Shown piece by piece: positions 13,486-55,843 of a DNA stretch of 64,000 bases (within the stretch, counting starts at the first letter, position 1; each line of letters starts with the position of its first letter). The position numbers were made by a program, and so were the translations under genes. Under the pieces are notes generated by a model. The model ran no database searches and was not told where the DNA came from. It saw only the letters and a list, made by a program, of their open reading frames with translations. The stretch covers positions 1,805-65,804 of the forward strand of contig CAIPMU010000003.1 in NCBI GenBank assembly GCA_903866275.1. The letters run 5' to 3'. This DNA is from Vampirovibrio chlorellavorus. GTDB lineage: Bacteria; Cyanobacteriota; Vampirovibrionia; Vampirovibrionales; Vampirovibrionaceae.

Positions 13486-13562
13486 TGGGGCGGATGATGG
13501 GAATCGAACCCACGTATACCGGAACCACAATCCGGGGCCTTGACCGCTTGGCGACACCCGCC
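13486..13562 (-). tRNA. tRNA-His (anticodon GTG) with encoded G-1 and CCA
   Basis: Reverse complement GGCGGGTG...CCGGATTGTGGTTCCGG...GTGGGTTCGATTCCCATCATCCGCCCCA. Anticodon loop TTGTGGT; G-1 pairs with C73 as in bacterial tRNA-His; canonical T-loop GGTTCGATTCC. Confidence 0.9.
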
Positions 13563-48514: not shown

Positions 48515-49711
48515 TTAATAGGCTGACAACCGGTGGGCAAATTCGCGCAGGTGCTGGGCCGCTGTGACAGCGCCCTGACTTTGGGCGGCCATGGCGGCAA
48601 ACTCCTGCGCGCGGACCAAAAATTGCGGAGAATCCAGTAAAAGCTGAATGTTGCGACGCAACGCCGTCTGGTTGCGGTCTTCCAGCTCGTTATACGACAT
48701 GGTCAGGGATACGCCGAGTTCCGCCATGCGGCTGGCGTTGTTCTCCTGCTCAATCTGCTGGCTGTCTGGCACAATCAGCGAGGGACGGCCCAGCGTGAGC
48801 AGTTCCATCGCCGTGCTGTGCCCCGCTTGCGTGATTACCAGATCGGCGGCCTTGAAGTAGGGCGCGGCCTCTTTCACAAACGGATGGATCTGCACGTTGT
48901 GCGGGGCATTCTGCGTGGTAAAGCTGGAAATAATGATAAAGTTCACATCGCCCATGTGGCGGGCGGCTTCCACAATGGCGTCGAATAGCGGGCGGCGGTA
49001 CTCATGCCCGCCCAAGGACGCCACAATCAGTGGGTTGATGCCCTGCTTGGCGATGGGCTGGATTTCATCCGCGCTCCAGGCGACTAAGGGGCCGACAAAG
49101 CGGGTGCGCTTTTTGACCGGGTAGTTGTCCGAGAGATTGGGTAGGCAAATGCTATACGGCGGCGAGAAATCCGGGATCAGAATTTCTTCCGCGCTGGACA
49201 GCCAGAGCTTCATGACCCATTCAAACGAGCGGCCGAACAGTTTAACCAGCGCCGAATCGCGCTCAAAAAACGGATAAAACGCGCTCTGGTTGGTGACTAC
49301 AATGCAAGGCAAGTCCAGTCGCTCAGCGGCCAGTACGGGGGCAATGCGTCCATCGGCGACCACCAGCGTCACCCCGTGGCGGCGAATGATGTCCATCTCT
49401 TCCTGCACAATCTGGTTCAGGCCCAAAGCTCGCGCCGGGTTGCTCAGGATGGTCTTGCCCACATCAAAATGGCCCTCGGAGCCGACGAATTTGACTTCCT
49501 GACTGACTTCCACGCTGGGGTAATCGTAAGAGCGGATGCGCTCCAGCGCGTAACTATAGGAGGCTAGCAGAATCTCTCCGGCCTTGAACTGGCGGGCCAG
49601 CGCCAGCGCCCGGCTGGAATGCCCATAGCCTTCGCTGCTGACGGAAAAGTAAATCTTGTCCCGCAGTTGGGGTACGTTTTTTTTGCGTTTACCAATTTGC
49701 AGCAGAGACAT
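48515..49711 (-). CDS. UDP-glycosyltransferase, GT-B fold (GT1/GT28, MGT/MurG-like)
   Basis: N-terminal SSEGYGHSSRALALA (glycine-rich acceptor loop); C-terminal HSTAMELLTLGRPSLIVP...QEQNA donor-binding motif. Confidence 0.7.
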   Translation of the reverse strand: MSLLQIGKRKKNVPQLRDKIYFSVSSEGYGHSSRALALARQFKAGEILLASYSYALERIRSYDYPSVEVSQEVKFVGSEGHFDVGKTILSNPARALGLNQIVQEEMDIIRRHGVTLVVADGRIAPVLAAERLDLPCIVVTNQSAFYPFFERDSALVKLFGRSFEWVMKLWLSSAEEILIPDFSPPYSICLPNLSDNYPVKKRTRFVGPLVAWSADEIQPIAKQGINPLIVASLGGHEYRRPLFDAIVEAARHMGDVNFIIISSFTTQNAPHNVQIHPFVKEAAPYFKAADLVITQAGHSTAMELLTLGRPSLIVPDSQQIEQENNASRMAELGVSLTMSYNELEDRNQTALRRNIQLLLDSPQFLVRAQEFAAMAAQSQGAVTAAQHLREFAHRLSAY

Positions 49712-51110
49712 CAGTGTTACCGGCTTTCAGTCGGTTATACAGGCCCAGAACGCCAAAGATTAGAATGGGTGCCCCAATCAGCAGAAACATGGTTTGTACC
49801 CCGACTTGTTCCACCGCTAACCCGGCAATCAGCACGGGCAGTGTGGAGGATGTACTGAGGATGGTAAATTGGACGCCAAACACCTTGCCCCGCTTGTCTT
49901 CCGGGATGAGCTCCTGCAACAGGGCCTGCAAGGGAATAGCGATAAACGACGCCGCCACACCCATAATCACCGAGAGGGTGTAGGTGTAGAGCATTCTCAT
50001 CGTAAAGCGCACTTCATCCAGATTCAACACGCCCGTGGACAGTTTGGGCAAGTGATACACATAGTCTTTTTGCGGAATGAGTCCCACTAACGTGAGCAGT
50101 ACCAGACACAGCCCCACGAAGGTAAAACCGCTAAACACCATTATGCCTCGGCGGGCGTGATGAAAGGAATGCCCGACCCAGAAAGCGCCTGCTGCCATAC
50201 CTACTCCGCTAAAGGCGATAATATAGGCGAACTTGCGAGCGGCCACTTGGGGATCGCTGAACAGGTAGGTCTTGGCAAAGCTGATAAAGAGAATGCACAG
50301 CGCCACCATCGCGGAAAATAGCAAGGCCAGCTTGAACATGGCGTTGCGTACCAATGGATTCGCCTTGATAAAGCTCAAGCCGTCCCGGATCTCCTCGAAA
50401 AAACGGCTGAAGGATTCCTGCATGTTGGCAGGCGGGCGCACCCCGTCGGCCATCTGGCAGAGGGGCGGGGTTTTCACAAAGCCCAGCGAGAGGCTGGCCA
50501 GCAGGAACAGCCCGGAAATGGCCCAATGCACATTATTCAGCGAAAACAGGTTAATCAGCGGATCGCCCAAGGCAAAGCCGAAAATGACCGCAGCCATCAT
50601 GGTGGTGGTAAACAGGGAATTGGCGGTCAGCAGGCAGCGCCGACTCACAATCATGGGAATGGTGGCGGCTTCGGCGGGCACAAAGAATTGCGTGGCTGCG
50701 GAAATCAGGAAGGCCACCAGATAAATGGCCCAGCCTCCCGTAGCCTCGGCGGCCCAGGGGATGAGGGCGACCAGGGTGGCCCGTAGCAGGTTGGTGCTCA
50801 CCAGCACCGCGCGACGGGGCCAGCGATCCACAAACACTCCCGCAATGGCCGTCAGGAGGACCGCAGGAATGGTAAAGGCAATGTAGAGAAAGCTGCTATA
50901 ACGATCGCTGGGCCCAAAGTGCCGCACAATCAGGCTGATAAAGACCACAAAGATAATACGATCCGCAATTTGGGAGAAGATTTGCCCCACCCAAAGCGCC
51001 ATGAAGTTGCGGTTTTTCAGTATGGCCTGATAGCCCTGACCGGGATGGGCCAAGGCGTCAATCAGTTCTTCCGGTGAATTATCGGTTAGTGGCGTCTGAA
51101 GCGACATCAA
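49689..51110 (-). CDS. MFS transporter
   Basis: 12-14 TM helices; motif A VDRWPRR; 23-nt overlap with the downstream GT gene, so likely co-operonic. Confidence 0.8.
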   Translation of the reverse strand: MMSLQTPLTDNSPEELIDALAHPGQGYQAILKNRNFMALWVGQIFSQIADRIIFVVFISLIVRHFGPSDRYSSFLYIAFTIPAVLLTAIAGVFVDRWPRRAVLVSTNLLRATLVALIPWAAEATGGWAIYLVAFLISAATQFFVPAEAATIPMIVSRRCLLTANSLFTTTMMAAVIFGFALGDPLINLFSLNNVHWAISGLFLLASLSLGFVKTPPLCQMADGVRPPANMQESFSRFFEEIRDGLSFIKANPLVRNAMFKLALLFSAMVALCILFISFAKTYLFSDPQVAARKFAYIIAFSGVGMAAGAFWVGHSFHHARRGIMVFSGFTFVGLCLVLLTLVGLIPQKDYVYHLPKLSTGVLNLDEVRFTMRMLYTYTLSVIMGVAASFIAIPLQALLQELIPEDKRGKVFGVQFTILSTSSTLPVLIAGLAVEQVGVQTMFLLIGAPILIFGVLGLYNRLKAGNTDVSAANW

Positions 51111-51237: not shown

Positions 51238-52062
51238 CTAGGCACCCACCGAGGTGGTAGCGTCCCGCTGAGCGGACAGCATTTCGGGTTGAGCCATTTC
51301 CATGAGCTGAAACACCAGATCATAAGCGCGTAGGGGCTTTTCCAGCACCTGCTTCAGGTAATACTGCAAAAACTTTTGAGCCTTATAAAGCGCTGAAAGC
51401 TCCCAGCCGGGCTGATGCGGGTTGTTCAGTACCCGCAAGCTGGTGGTGGAAACATTCACCCATTGCTCGCCGAAGCCTCCGGTTGTAATGAGGTGCTTGC
51501 GCTTCTCGGCGGGGGTGGTCACTCCACCCAGCTGTGAGCAGAAGCAGTAATAGACTGTGGTTGGATCCAACGGCGCATGGGTCAACACGCAGGCGTTGAG
51601 GACGGGATGAATCCCGGCCCCTTGAAGCATGGCCAGCTGAAACTCAATGGCAATGGGGGTAATCTCGCTTTCTTCTGCCTGATCCAGCAAAGAAAGCGTC
51701 TGTTTGAGATCCTGAAACACCTGCTCGCTGTCGGTATCCACCGAGATGCGGTTGACCAGTTCCGCAAAAAGCTGCCCATAGGCCAGCTTGAACAAGTCAG
51801 AACGCACGCCGGTGAAGGTTTCCCGCGGCTGGTACTGGCACAGGCGATCCAGGCTTTTGCCCTTGCTCAGTTCCACCTCACTGATGTTGAGGGGCTGGCA
51901 AGCCCCTGCTAGCTTGCTTTTAGGCTTTTTTGCGCCCTTTACAATCGCCGAAATCTTCCCATGCTCGGGCGAGTACAGGTGCAGAATCTGATCCGCCTCG
52001 CCAAAATCGTAGGCGCGCAGGCAGATGACTTCGGTGGTGTATGTTTTGGCGGTAATCGCCAC
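51238..52062 (-). CDS. recO: DNA repair protein RecO
   Basis: N-terminal OB fold (EVICLRAYDFGEADQILHLYSPEHGKISAIVKGAKK); Cys-rich CxxC...C region (CFCSQLGG); 274 aa. Confidence 0.8.
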   Translation of the reverse strand: MAITAKTYTTEVICLRAYDFGEADQILHLYSPEHGKISAIVKGAKKPKSKLAGACQPLNISEVELSKGKSLDRLCQYQPRETFTGVRSDLFKLAYGQLFAELVNRISVDTDSEQVFQDLKQTLSLLDQAEESEITPIAIEFQLAMLQGAGIHPVLNACVLTHAPLDPTTVYYCFCSQLGGVTTPAEKRKHLITTGGFGEQWVNVSTTSLRVLNNPHQPGWELSALYKAQKFLQYYLKQVLEKPLRAYDLVFQLMEMAQPEMLSAQRDATTSVGA

Positions 52063-52271
52063 AGTGAAAGGCTCCGTGGGTTGCTGTAAGAGGACAGGCG
52101 TGGATTCAGAGTAACAGCTTGTCCTTATTGTAGTGCAGATTTTTCATGAGTATCGTTTTTGATCAGCCTGCAAACGGGGACGTTCTAACCCCCTTCAAAG
52201 TTCACGACGGATGGGGTGGCTGAAAAAGTGCTTGGCAACTTTGGCGGGTTTATGGTTTCTTAATAAACATC

Positions 52272-52376
52272 ATGAATCAACTCTCTCGCCAACATCATAA
52301 CCACCATCATCACCATCCGCTTGTGATGGCTTATGGCGCTGTGACTGGCCTCGAGAAAGAATCTTCCCTGTTCTAA
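52272..52376 (+). CDS. His-rich leader-type peptide (34 aa; 7 His in 9 consecutive codons)
   Basis: MNQLSRQHHNHHHHHPLVMAYGAVTGLEKESSLF. Weak SD. Followed 29 nt later by an intrinsic terminator and then by the 52486 gene. Confidence 0.35.
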   Translation: MNQLSRQHHNHHHHHPLVMAYGAVTGLEKESSLF

Positions 52377-52404
52377 ACCAAGATTTTAACTCTTTCACCA
52401 ATCG

Positions 52405-52445
52405 AAACGAACCGTAAGCCGCATCGCTGACGGTTCGTTTTTGTT
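52405..52445 (+). terminator. Rho-independent terminator / attenuator hairpin
   Basis: aaacgaaccgt / aagccgcatcgctg / acggttcgttt followed by ttgtt; sits between the His-rich sORF and the downstream gene start. Confidence 0.5.
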
Positions 52446-52485
52446 ATTGGCATCAAAATTTTATCTTGAGGTTTAATCCGGTACG

Positions 52486-54381
52486 ATGAGCATTGCCCCC
52501 AACAACCCAGCCCCACAGAAGTCTCTCCGTTTTGGGAGCGGTGTTGGGCATGAGCCGAAGCTTAGTAAAGCGGCTCAGGGTGCGGAAAAGGTGATGGGCG
52601 TTCTGGGCAAGTCCCGTGGTCAGCAGATGATCATGGAAGATTTTGTGGGCTTTGGCGGTCTGCGGAGTTTGTTTGATCTGTCTCGGGGGCACATTTTCGG
52701 TACGGGGATTTTGAACTGGCCTGCGGCTTCTGAGCGCTTGATCCGGGAAGGGGCCTCTATATTCACCGATAACATGTTGAGTGGCATTGTGGCTCAATGG
52801 ATCGGGAAGGCCTTTGACGGGGGTGGCAAGTCGTTTAGTAATGGATTTACCGATTACCCAACGCTCGAAGCGTTTCAAAAAGCGGTGGGGACTGAGCATG
52901 AAGGGTTTATTGACCGCTTAAGCGCTCACCTGCTGAAGGATTCACCCAAGCGGGCCGACTTTCAAAACGCGTTATTACCGATTTGGAAAGCATTGCCCAC
53001 CAGGACTGAAAAACCCGAGGCTGCCAAGGTTTGGGCCAATACGACGAAAACCGGGCAGGCCAAGCAACTGGCCAAGGCGCTCGACCAGACCCACTTTGAC
53101 CTGAAGGTTGGGGAGCACACCTTCAAGCTGGATAACCTGCTGGATGATCTGCGAATTTTTAAAGACCACATGGCCACTCGCCTGCCCAACGGGACGGGCA
53201 ACGCCTGGGCCGAAGCCGCTCAGGATTCTATTAAAAACACGCTGACTGCCAAAAACTGGAAGCTGAGTGCCATTGCCCTGGGCATGGGCGCCACGTTTGC
53301 CGTGCCCTTCGCAAATTCGATGCTGACCCGTTGGCGTTACGGCATCAACTATTATCCCGGTGAAATGGGTCTGGGCCAGAACCGCGCCAAGCCCGGTACT
53401 CGTGGCTCGCGGGTGCCGTCTCGGGCTGGCCTGCAACAACCTTCCATCAACCCTTCTTTTAAAGAACGGCTGGAAGCCTTTGGGGAAAAACGCATGCCCT
53501 ATGTCACCCGTAAGCTGAAGGACGGGAATCCGCTGCCCTTGTTGGCGGCTCTGGCGCCACTGCCTTTCGTGGTGGGGCTGTTTGATGTGTCCGCCCGAGA
53601 GTTTGTGGGACCCAGCATCTTGAAATTATGGAATCAGACCTCTCGGCACAAGTTGCGCAATATGTTTGATTTCACGAAAGGCTGGCCGTTTACCGCCCCG
53701 CAGCAAATGGGCTCCATGTTTGCCCTGCTGATTACATCTCGGTTGATGTGCGCCCGCAGTGATAATGAATACAAGGAGCTGATGCTGGATTCCGCTTTTG
53801 GTTGGGGCTGGTGGATGGTGGGAACGCCAGTACTGCAGAAGTTTGCGGGTAAAGCCCTGGACAAAGGCTGGTTTCCGTTCGTTGATAAGACCCAGTTGAT
53901 GAACGGGAAGTCGGTACGGACTAAGGCCGAAATTGAACTTTTGGGCGAGTTGGCCGAAAAGAAATTAACCGGTGAAGCGCTGAAGGCCGAAATGGCCATG
54001 ATTCAGCGCACGATGAACGCCAGTGTCTGGATGCGGGCGATGTCAATGATTACAACGTTTGGCATACTGGGCATTGGCATACCTTACGCGGCCATTAAAA
54101 TGACCCAGCGCAACGAAGCCCGCAAGCAGAAGCGTGCGGATGCACGAGCGCCTCAACCGCTGGCGACTTTGAGTGTGCCTCTTGCCCCAGGGGTTCGTCC
54201 GGTTGCGGTTGCCCTGAATCCGTTTGGGGCATCTTCACCGGTTAATCAAACGGCGGCGATGAACGCTCCGTTTGCGATGACCCGCCCCGGTTTTGGTGCG
54301 GGTACCGTATCGCTGAACAATCCCTTGATGCCCTTGCCGTTGGTGGCGCCGGTTATGAACCGGCCGCAATGGCAGGGATAG
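52486..54381 (+). CDS. Hypothetical large membrane-associated protein (631 aa, no recognisable domain)
   Basis: About 5 predicted TM segments in the central and C-terminal part; N-terminal ~240 aa soluble; Pro/Ala-rich C-terminal tail; no recognisable catalytic motif. Confidence 0.6.
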   Translation: MSIAPNNPAPQKSLRFGSGVGHEPKLSKAAQGAEKVMGVLGKSRGQQMIMEDFVGFGGLRSLFDLSRGHIFGTGILNWPAASERLIREGASIFTDNMLSGIVAQWIGKAFDGGGKSFSNGFTDYPTLEAFQKAVGTEHEGFIDRLSAHLLKDSPKRADFQNALLPIWKALPTRTEKPEAAKVWANTTKTGQAKQLAKALDQTHFDLKVGEHTFKLDNLLDDLRIFKDHMATRLPNGTGNAWAEAAQDSIKNTLTAKNWKLSAIALGMGATFAVPFANSMLTRWRYGINYYPGEMGLGQNRAKPGTRGSRVPSRAGLQQPSINPSFKERLEAFGEKRMPYVTRKLKDGNPLPLLAALAPLPFVVGLFDVSAREFVGPSILKLWNQTSRHKLRNMFDFTKGWPFTAPQQMGSMFALLITSRLMCARSDNEYKELMLDSAFGWGWWMVGTPVLQKFAGKALDKGWFPFVDKTQLMNGKSVRTKAEIELLGELAEKKLTGEALKAEMAMIQRTMNASVWMRAMSMITTFGILGIGIPYAAIKMTQRNEARKQKRADARAPQPLATLSVPLAPGVRPVAVALNPFGASSPVNQTAAMNAPFAMTRPGFGAGTVSLNNPLMPLPLVAPVMNRPQWQG

Positions 54382-54492
54382 AAAATCCTTGAGTGCTCGG
54401 GTGTGGGATTCGGTCAGGATGAGTGCAGGCGAGGCGAAATTGGTATGTTTGTAGACCTGCTTTCGTTTGGCGTACAGAGCTCAAGCCATTAA

Positions 54493-54519
54493 AAAAGCCC
54501 TCCACGGGGGAGGGCTTTT
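54493..54519. terminator. Bidirectional rho-independent terminator (shared by the 52486 gene and rplT)
   Basis: aaaaaa-gccctcc-acggg-ggagggc-tttt. Confidence 0.6.
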
Positions 54520-54555: not shown

Positions 54556-54906
54556 CTAGAGGGCGGCTTTCACTTGCTCGGCAATCTTGGCGAACGCTTT
54601 GGCATCGGTGGAAGCCAGTTCGGACAAGAATTTGCGGTTGAGGCTGATGCCTGCTTTTTGTACGCCGTTGATAAAGCGGCTGTAGGACAAGCCATGCTGA
54701 CGGGCAGCGGCGTTGATCCGGGCGATCCACAAGCGACGGAGATCCCGTTTCTTGTTACGACGATCGCGGTAAGCGTATTTCAGGGATTTCATGACCGCTT
54801 GGTTAGCGACCTTGAACAGTTTGCTCCGGGTACCCCGGAAACCTTTGGCCAGCTTCAGAATTTTCTTATGGCGCTGGCGGGAAGCACTTCCTCTTTTGAC
54901 GCGCAT
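54556..54906 (-). CDS. rplT: 50S ribosomal protein L20
   Basis: [25 protein letters not shown]...; 116 aa. Confidence 0.95.
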
Positions 54907-55303: not shown

Positions 55304-55843
55304 TTACTTCTTTTTGAGAGGGCCGATATGGAGGGTGATGGTACGCCCTTCCATCCGAATGTCCCCTTCGAGGGAGCCAACGTCCTGCAAGTCTACAACA
55401 AACCGTCTGGCGAGATCAAATGCGAGGTTGGCGTGCTGGGTTTCGCGACCCTTCAAGCGGATGGAGCATTTGACCTTGTTGCCGTCATCCAGAAATTTTT
55501 TGGAGTGTTGGACTTTGGTGCCATAGTCATGGTCATCAATACGCACACCCATCTTAATTTCCTTGACTTCAACCACGTGCTGTTTTTTCTTGGCTTCACG
55601 GTTTTTTTTGTCCGCTTCGAATTTGAACTTGCCGTAATCAACCAGACGAACAACCAGCGGGGAGGAGTCAAAACTCATAATCACCAAGTCCAGACCGCGT
55701 TCTCTGGCCATATTTTCCGCGTCTCTGCGGGAGATGATTTCATTAATTTCGCCATCAATCAGGCGAACCTCGGTGGCACGGATGTCTGGGGTCAGTATTT
55801 GCGGCCCTTTGTTGACTTGCCGTTGTGGTGGAAACTTGGAAAT
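55304..55843 (-). CDS. infC: Translation initiation factor IF-3 (ATT start codon)
   Basis: Track ORF 55304..55711 lacks the N-domain. Extending upstream in frame gives ISKFPPQRQVNKGPQILTPDIRATEVRLIDGEINEIISRRDAENMARERGLDLVIMS..., beginning at ATT (55843-55841) with GGAGGG 9 nt upstream. Confidence 0.85.
   Translation of the reverse strand: MSKFPPQRQVNKGPQILTPDIRATEVRLIDGEINEIISRRDAENMARERGLDLVIMSFDSSPLVVRLVDYGKFKFEADKKNREAKKKQHVVEVKEIKMGVRIDDHDYGTKVQHSKKFLDDGNKVKCSIRLKGRETQHANLAFDLARRFVVDLQDVGSLEGDIRMEGRTITLHIGPLKKK

Follow-up and report, generated by a model that had tools for sequence, protein, structure and literature searches.

The locus considered here lies in a 64,000-nt stretch of Vampirovibrionales DNA (contig CAIPMU010000003.1 of assembly GCA_903866275.1, positions 1,805 to 65,804 of the forward strand), which we call the window. 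All coordinates refer to it unless another locus is named. Between recO and the terminator of rplT, the window carries a unit made of a short open reading frame (sORF) rich in His codons, a stem-loop, and a gene, X, that encodes a protein of 631 residues. A preliminary description made from the sequence had placed these three elements there, and we found all of them at the places it gave. The sORF at 52272-52376 (plus strand) is indeed His-rich, with 7 His in codons 8-15. The stem-loop between the sORF and the large gene is a clean rho-independent terminator, as proposed, and its position is borne out, even if it starts 27 nt after the stop codon and not 29 nt, a trivial difference. The 631-residue open reading frame (ORF) had been described as a domain-less membrane protein that is not a his gene. 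Both statements are correct: the protein has no Pfam match at E ≤ 1 and has ~5 predicted transmembrane segments. The elements of the unit are the following:

52272-52376, plus strand: leader sORF, 34 codons, encoding MNQLSRQHHNHHHHHPLVMAYGAVTGLEKESSLF

52293-52316, plus strand: region 1, the putative regulatory His codons (codons 8-15, i.e., 7 His and 1 Asn)

52328-52336, plus strand: region 2, GGCUUAUGG, the 5' strand of the predicted antiterminator, inside the sORF

52353-52392, plus strand: irregular inner hairpin (GAG..AGAAUCUU / AAGAUUUU..CUC), between regions 2 and 3

52412-52420, plus strand: region 3, CCGUAAGCC, the upper 5' arm of the terminator, invariant in 15 loci

52404-52445, plus strand: intrinsic terminator (regions 3:4), stem-loop and U-tract

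52486-54381, plus strand: X (631 residues), the presumed regulated gene, an all-helical predicted membrane protein of an orphan family

We interpret the sORF and the terminator as a ribosome-mediated leader-peptide transcription attenuator that reads the charging of His-tRNA and controls X. The evidence, which is in silico, leads us to give this interpretation a probability of roughly 0.85. Ribosome-mediated attenuation was one of the possibilities raised in the preliminary description, and it is strongly supported by a conserved run of His codons, by an antiterminator exclusive of the terminator, and by a switch between the two that can be reproduced by folding the leaders in silico.

Seven His in nine codons occur only once in the six-frame translation of the 64-kb window, where 4 other places reach 5 out of 9. 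We gathered related loci from genomes, metagenomes, and assemblies, and compared the window with 14 further non-identical leader-bearing loci (15 in the comparison set). The sORF, the terminator, and an ortholog of X recur together in these 14 loci, which are all from Vampirovibrionales and include V. chlorellavorus. We exclude chance as an explanation for the His leader because the run of 7 His in 9 codons is unique in the window and because the three elements recur together elsewhere. In all 15 leaders, the sORF starts with ATG, has 28-36 codons, of which 6-9 encode His, and stops ahead of the terminator. The preliminary description had suggested checking whether the His run is conserved upstream of X orthologs: it is kept in 15 of the 15 leader-bearing loci, and every leader has its 6-9 His between codons 4 and 18, always in frame with the ATG and with the pre-terminator stop. 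The codons themselves vary freely between CAT (71 across the 15 leaders) and CAC (49), and the residue remains His despite this variation. Judging from these sequence patterns, the His codons are selected as codons, and we infer that the sORF is translated, given the in-frame ATG and stop and the synonymous CAT/CAC variation. We searched the window and ~190 kb of related loci, with the regions ahead of the distant paralogs of X (L022-L025) included, for a further copy of the His leader and for leaders with runs of other amino acids (Arg, Phe, Tyr, and Ser, for which auxotrophy is also predicted), and found neither. A shorter His run, IHHHHHD, is found in a plus-strand frame of the window at 21971-22010, opposite a minus-strand ORF (21149-22108). 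It has no sORF-plus-terminator architecture around it and is probably due to chance or part of a miscalled gene.

The leaders align with a mean column identity of 62% and show long invariant blocks. The X proteins of the leader-bearing loci are 33%-76% identical to that of the window, and mostly only 33%-40%. An index of 5.8 billion proteins contains 40 relatives of X: one identical, one at 76%, one at 53%, and the others at 33%-44%. The few that are named come from Vampirovibrio chlorellavorus and from metagenome-assembled genomes labelled as cyanobacteria. In a rough neighbour-joining tree of X, the leader-bearing loci form one large clade, within which the leaderless loci L012/L013 and L007 are nested. 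This nesting suggests that the leader has an old origin and was later lost in these branches of the X tree.

The terminator stem is formed by the pairing of 52404-52415 with 52430-52441, topped by an inner 3-bp stem (52417-52419 with 52426-52428) and followed by a U-tract at 52438-52445. Its free energy is -22.6 kcal/mol (z = -5.1 relative to dinucleotide shuffles), and none of 200 shuffled sequences folded as well. A generic terminator scan missed this hairpin because it limits the loop to 8 nt. The stem pairs in 100% of the alignment cells of the 15 loci, with compensatory changes in 2 pairs.

A structure exclusive of this terminator, which the preliminary description had suggested searching for, does exist. 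Region 3 is common to the terminator, where it pairs with region 4 (the 3' arm of the terminator), and to the predicted antiterminator, where it pairs with region 2 (consensus GGCUUAYGG). In each of the 15 loci, all 9 bp can form between regions 2 and 3. Of the 120 alignment cells of the 2:3 helix, 100% pair, a share that falls to 14%-46% once the partner columns are slid. Region 2 varies at 3 positions (C to U, A to G, U/C), and each of these changes preserves the pairing with region 3, which is invariant. When regions 1 and 4 are omitted, RNAalifold predicts exactly the 2:3 helix. Outside the core, the flanks of region 2 and region 3 also pair better within a locus than between loci (-23.1 kcal/mol with their own partner versus -21.1 kcal/mol with a foreign one; permutation p = 0.008). 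This modestly supports an antiterminator longer than the 9 bp.

A third helix, the putative anti-antiterminator 1:2, is made by CCAUCAU (52304-52310) and GUGAUGG (52323-52329), i.e., by the His codons and GAUGAUGG. The latter lies just upstream of the GGCUUAYGG motif, and the helix overlaps region 2 by 2 nt. It is predicted by RNAalifold, and 96% of its cells pair. The 1:2 and 2:3 helices share the first two G of region 2 (52328-52329), and the 2:3 and 3:4 helices share region 3. This overlap makes the three helices mutually exclusive, as in the classical 1:2 / 2:3 / 3:4 pattern. Between regions 2 and 3, the inner hairpin has the stop codon of the sORF (52374-52376) in its apical loop, and its 3' arm corresponds to a conserved mid element, GATTTT(C)AACTC. 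Nested hairpins are predicted in 15 of the 15 leaders (of the types GGAG..CUCC and GAAAUC..GAUUUC), with the stop codon in the 5' arm or the apical loop. They are misaligned by MAFFT and are recurrent in shape. Another pairing, between the region that follows region 2 and the start of X, was present in the minimum free energy (MFE) structure of the window; we dropped it because it was not found in other loci.

The second possibility raised in the preliminary description was that the sORF, as a gene in its own right with its own terminator, encodes a His-rich micropeptide that binds Ni, Zn, or Co. In that case, X would be transcribed from a promoter in the block that precedes it (the 'down' block described below). 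This block is conserved between the terminator and X, resembles the one that precedes the sORF, and could be a promoter; the His run is also the one feature of the peptide kept in all 15 loci. The rest of the peptide tells a different story. Downstream of the His run, it differs completely between lineages, while the nucleotides are invariant. The GGCUUAYGG motif is read as (M)-A-Y-G (frame 2) in 11 loci and as G-L-R or G-L-W (frame 0) in the 4 others (L001, L003, L015, and L006), which sit on two separate branches of the X tree. Because the same motif is read in two frames on separate branches, the constraint acts on the RNA and not on the peptide. In addition, the motif is exactly complementary to the 5' arm of the terminator in 15 out of 15 loci, which a free-standing micropeptide gene would not need. 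The His sORF was never found apart from X in the ~190 kb of related sequence scanned, and no metal-related genes adjoin it. We thus disfavour the micropeptide, which we regard as very improbable.

We then asked how the leaders fold, from the ATG to the U-tract. In the absence of constraints, the MFE structure consists of the 1:2 helix and the terminator in all 15 leaders. We simulated a stalled ribosome by forcing the 5' part to be single-stranded (third or fourth His codon in the A site) and by cutting the RNA before region 4. Under these conditions, the 2:3 helix is in the MFE structure of 15 out of 15 leaders, with 9 of 9 bp in 14 of them and 8 of 9 in the remaining one.

Such a leader would work as follows. 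Transcription would start shortly upstream of the sORF or at the sORF itself. When histidine is plentiful, the ribosome would pass the His codons and move on into the 3' half of the sORF, whose RNA provides the 5' strand of the antiterminator rod. Behind it, the His codons would pair again with GAUGAUGG (1:2), region 3 would be left for region 4, the terminator would form, and transcription would stop at ~52445. When charged His-tRNA is scarce, the ribosome would stall within the 6-9 His codons and occupy region 1. The free GGCUUAYGG would then pair with CCGUAAGCC as soon as the latter is made, the terminator would not form, and RNA polymerase would enter X. This scheme presumes the translation of the sORF, the coupling of transcription and translation, and the direction of the response. 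For the terminating state, it further presumes that the 1:2 helix re-forms and that the rod is unzipped.

If X is under the control of an attenuator that reads His-tRNA, it is predicted to be induced by histidine limitation. We would expect this to happen when histidine derived from the prey runs short, in a lineage whose cultured member is a predicted auxotroph: the predicted biosynthetic repertoire of V. chlorellavorus covers only 15 amino acids and lacks histidine (PMC4451040). X is itself poor in His, as expected of a protein made during His shortage. Its family has a mean of 0.86% His, the V. chlorellavorus orthologs have 0.17%-0.34%, and the ORFs of the window have 2.28%. The median is lower in the leader-bearing X than in the leaderless ones (1.09% versus 1.79%; one-sided Mann-Whitney test ignoring phylogeny, p = 0.02).

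The architecture alone cannot tell why ribosomes slow down at the His codons. The attenuator might thus respond to another signal, such as the state of tRNA-His (e.g., its queuosine), general translation stress, or a metal bound to the nascent poly-His. Both CAU and CAC are used, and attenuators based on an upstream ORF (uORF) that respond to general translation stress are documented, as in the case of whiB7 (PMC10274678). Yet, the same study shows that the composition of the uORF sets which amino acid is sensed (PMC10274678), and runs of this kind (6-9 codons for a single amino acid) are the hallmark of amino-acid-specific attenuators. The depletion of His in X and the predicted His auxotrophy of V. 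chlorellavorus also fit a response to histidine supply. We therefore consider a signal other than the supply of histidine to be improbable.

The function of X is more difficult to predict. Neither X nor ten of its distant relatives match Pfam or NCBIfam, X has no relative among solved structures, and we found no profile or fold match to known families of transporters and membrane proteins (MFS, APC, ABC permease, YuiF, and others). A profile search of 1.84 billion cluster representatives revealed 327 members of the X family, 98 of which at E ≤ 1e-30. The named distant members are 'hypothetical proteins' of Vampirovibrionales, and the family is confined to this lineage. The AlphaFold model of X is confident (predicted local distance difference test, 80; predicted template modelling score, 0.76). 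It shows an all-helical N-terminal part of ~250 residues, ~5 membrane helices, and a disordered Pro-rich C-terminal tail. Conservation is highest in a pair of helices around PFT-QQQM..LITSRL..SRSDNEYRE..DS..GWG.W..GTP. Other histidine auxotrophs keep a histidine-sensing T-box or HisR on their histidine transporters (PMC9413887). By analogy with these regulators, X could perhaps act in the acquisition of histidine, a suggestion that we regard as tentative. It could equally have some other function induced by starvation in the predator. We also hold as a possibility, with the same reserve, that X represents a new family for the acquisition of histidine or other amino acids in predatory Vampirovibrionales, whose leader would be a 'hunger gauge' for uptake or prey exploitation.

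The sORF and X are each preceded by a conserved block, and the two blocks have parallel layouts:

52225-52271, plus strand: 'up' block, AAAAAGTGC-TTGGCAAC-N13-TTTATGGTTTC-TTAATAAACATC, directly before the ATG of the sORF

52446-52485, plus strand: 'down' block, TTGGCATCAAAATTTTATCTTGAGGTTTAATCCGGTACG, before the ATG of X

The common layout, which shows hardly any indels, is TGGCA-N16-17-RGGTTTT-N12-13-ATG; in the 'down' block, TGGCA is 33-34 nt and RGGTTTT is 12-13 nt before the ATG of X. We saw this layout before no other gene of the window. The 'up' block has almost no indels in the 15 loci, and conservation begins ~55 nt ahead of the ATG. It may be a promoter, a short 5' UTR (untranslated region), or a translation-initiation element. 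A promoter scan showed nothing near the sORF, and visual inspection of the 'up' block did not support the usual sigma factors: the spacer between TTGGCA and TAATAA/TATAAT is 23 nt, which does not fit sigma-70, and the GG-GC spacing is wrong for sigma-54. The leaderless ortholog L007 retains a partly similar 'down' element. The two blocks could be copies of one type of promoter giving near-leaderless mRNAs, in which case X would also have a promoter independent of His. Alternatively, they could be translation-initiation elements or the relic of the duplication that made the leader. A third copy, GRTTTT(C)AAC, is found at ~52382-52394, and a string of the 'up' block, GGTTTATGG (52247-52255), is similar to both region 2 and region 4 and, if transcribed, could pair with region 3.

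These repeated strings raise the question of whether the conserved elements act mainly on DNA. The blocks would then be duplicated promoter or operator elements, the hairpin would insulate X from transcription coming from upstream, and an internal duplication (region 2 being similar to region 4, and 'up' to 'down') would have left regions 2 and 3 complementary as a side effect. The 'up' block, region 2, region 4, and the 'down' block do share GCTTAYGG-like or GGTTTT-like strings, at a fixed spacing from the ATG, which suggests duplication. However, a relic of duplication would have decayed at the level of divergence seen for X (33%-40% identity), whereas region 2 remains complementary at 9 of 9 positions and accepts only wobble-compatible changes. 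The in-frame His codons and their synonymous variation would also be left unexplained. In our view, this explanation is extremely improbable.

Several observations weigh against attenuation by His-tRNA charging. Region 3 is invariant, and the core of the antiterminator thus lacks compensatory changes on both sides. The support for this core comes from the one-sided wobble changes, on the argument from the two reading frames, and on the co-variation of the flanks. The inner hairpin is thermodynamically unexceptional (per-sequence z between +0.7 and -2.4). The sORF has no Shine-Dalgarno sequence. A ribosome at the stop codon leaves region 2, which is 20-38 nt upstream, uncovered, so termination in the presence of histidine relies on the re-formation of the 1:2 helix and on the disruption of the rod. 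In two V. chlorellavorus genomes (L002 and L005), the stem is intact and the U-tract is weak or interrupted (GGTTCTTTGCGTATG). These terminators are at ~3825-3870 in L002 and ~3928-3972 in L005, where the terminator also lies ~30 nt farther from the stop codon than in the other loci. The 'down' block could provide X with a second promoter, independent of His. The leader is absent from L007, from a soil clade (L012/L013) where the divergent neighbour is nadA, and from the distant L022-L025. Finally, the trend towards a His-poor X ignores phylogeny and has exceptions (L017, at 3.0%).

Leader-peptide attenuation is a textbook mechanism, described mainly in Proteobacteria, Actinobacteria, and some Firmicutes. 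The closest parallel is the hisL attenuator of E. coli and Salmonella (Rfam His_leader, RF00514). As in hisL, a short leader ORF contains clustered His codons, these regulatory codons pair with the following segment, which in turn competes with the 3' arm of the terminator for a shared middle segment, and an intrinsic terminator precedes the regulated gene, with read-through predicted when charged His-tRNA is scarce. The resemblance does not extend to the sequence. The leader has no similarity to hisL in sequence or by covariance models: Rfam families (His_leader RF00514, T-box, and others) gave no match at their gathering scores, and a search of 52050-52600 at E ≤ 10 returned only chance matches (SNORD123, E = 5.9; IsrM, E = 8). 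The host is from Vampirovibrionia (Cyanobacteriota) and not from Proteobacteria, the presumed target is a single orphan membrane protein instead of His biosynthesis, and His auxotrophy is predicted for the one member of the lineage in culture. The antiterminator also differs: here it is a long irregular rod in which regions 2 and 3 are ~90 nt apart and which includes the last part of the sORF.

His-codon leaders have been found outside Proteobacteria before. Leader peptides of this kind precede hisS paralogs/hisZ in Bacillus, and his attenuators are known in Clostridia and Erysipelotrichales (PMC2965389, PMC9413887). Like the leader described here, they are independent inventions uncovered by comparative genomics, but their targets are histidine genes (tRNA synthetase, biosynthesis) and they have 3-5 His codons instead of 6-9. 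In histidine-auxotrophic Lactobacillales and Actinobacteria, His-specific T-boxes or HisR control the transporters hisXYZ* and yuiF (PMC9413887). As may be the case for X, a histidine sensor is kept there in auxotrophs, on a membrane uptake system and not on biosynthesis. However, the sensor is a tRNA-binding riboswitch or a repressor, and the targets belong to recognised transporter families, none of which X matches. The whiB7 gene of mycobacteria is a case of a uORF attenuator on a non-biosynthetic gene, with a specificity set by amino-acid composition (PMC10274678). Its uORF is Ala-rich and broadly responsive to translation stress, and its target is a transcription factor, whereas the leader of X has a run of a single amino acid and precedes a membrane protein. 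Full-text searches of the literature available to us returned no report of leader-peptide attenuation in Melainabacteria or Vampirovibrionia. The mechanism is classical; the novelty lies in the lineage, the sequence family, and the target gene.

If our interpretation is correct, the device would have no tie to histidine biosynthesis and would instead control an orphan membrane protein specific to the lineage. With the same reserve as for the 'hunger gauge', it might be the first attenuator of the leader-peptide type reported from the cyanobacterial phylum, and might be driven from a leaderless sORF. It would give a regulatory handle on a family that cannot be annotated otherwise (327 cluster representatives), whose members are predicted to be made when histidine is short. 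X is thereby nominated as a candidate for histidine acquisition or for starvation-triggered predation, in an obligate predator of algae that is of importance for algal cultivation. The leader would be a compact and generic switch, directly testable in E. coli.

The unit is flanked by the following elements:

51238-52062, minus strand: recO, with RecO_N and RecO_C domains, divergent from the sORF/X unit

54491-54519, both directions: terminator hairpin AAAAAA-GCCCTCC-ACGGG-GGAGGGC-TTTT, read from the sequence

54556-54906, minus strand: rplT, convergent with X, part of the rplT-rpmI-infC cluster

The hairpin at 54491-54519 is common to X and to the convergent rplT, and closes the unit; the generic terminator scan did not list it. 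The neighbourhood recO / X / rplT-rpmI-infC / GGDEF is kept in most leader-bearing loci. In V. chlorellavorus, the upstream neighbour of the unit is a gene of the Dus family and not recO. Across the clade, the conserved surroundings (window 48515-51110, minus strand, and 56515-58299, plus strand) include a GT28-like glycosyltransferase, an MFS_3 transporter, recO, and X. They continue after X with rplT-rpmI-infC, a tRNA-Leu, and a GAF-GGDEF protein, and no functional link of these genes to X is evident. The infC ORF (IF3; window 55304-55711, minus strand) has 135 codons from its first ATG, and is called at 136-228 residues in related loci (L009, L010, L019, and L020). These differences in length suggest an unusual or miscalled start codon, a typical feature of infC. 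A tRNA-His(GTG) gene is found at 13486-13561 (minus strand), ~39 kb from the His leader and with no evident link to it. Another strong terminator-like hairpin (AAACCAGAAGACCCGTCAGA...TCTGACGGGTCTTCTGGTTTTTG) is found in L016 (positions 1-158), ahead of a distant homolog of X with 0% His. The contig ends just at this hairpin, which may belong to a different kind of leader.

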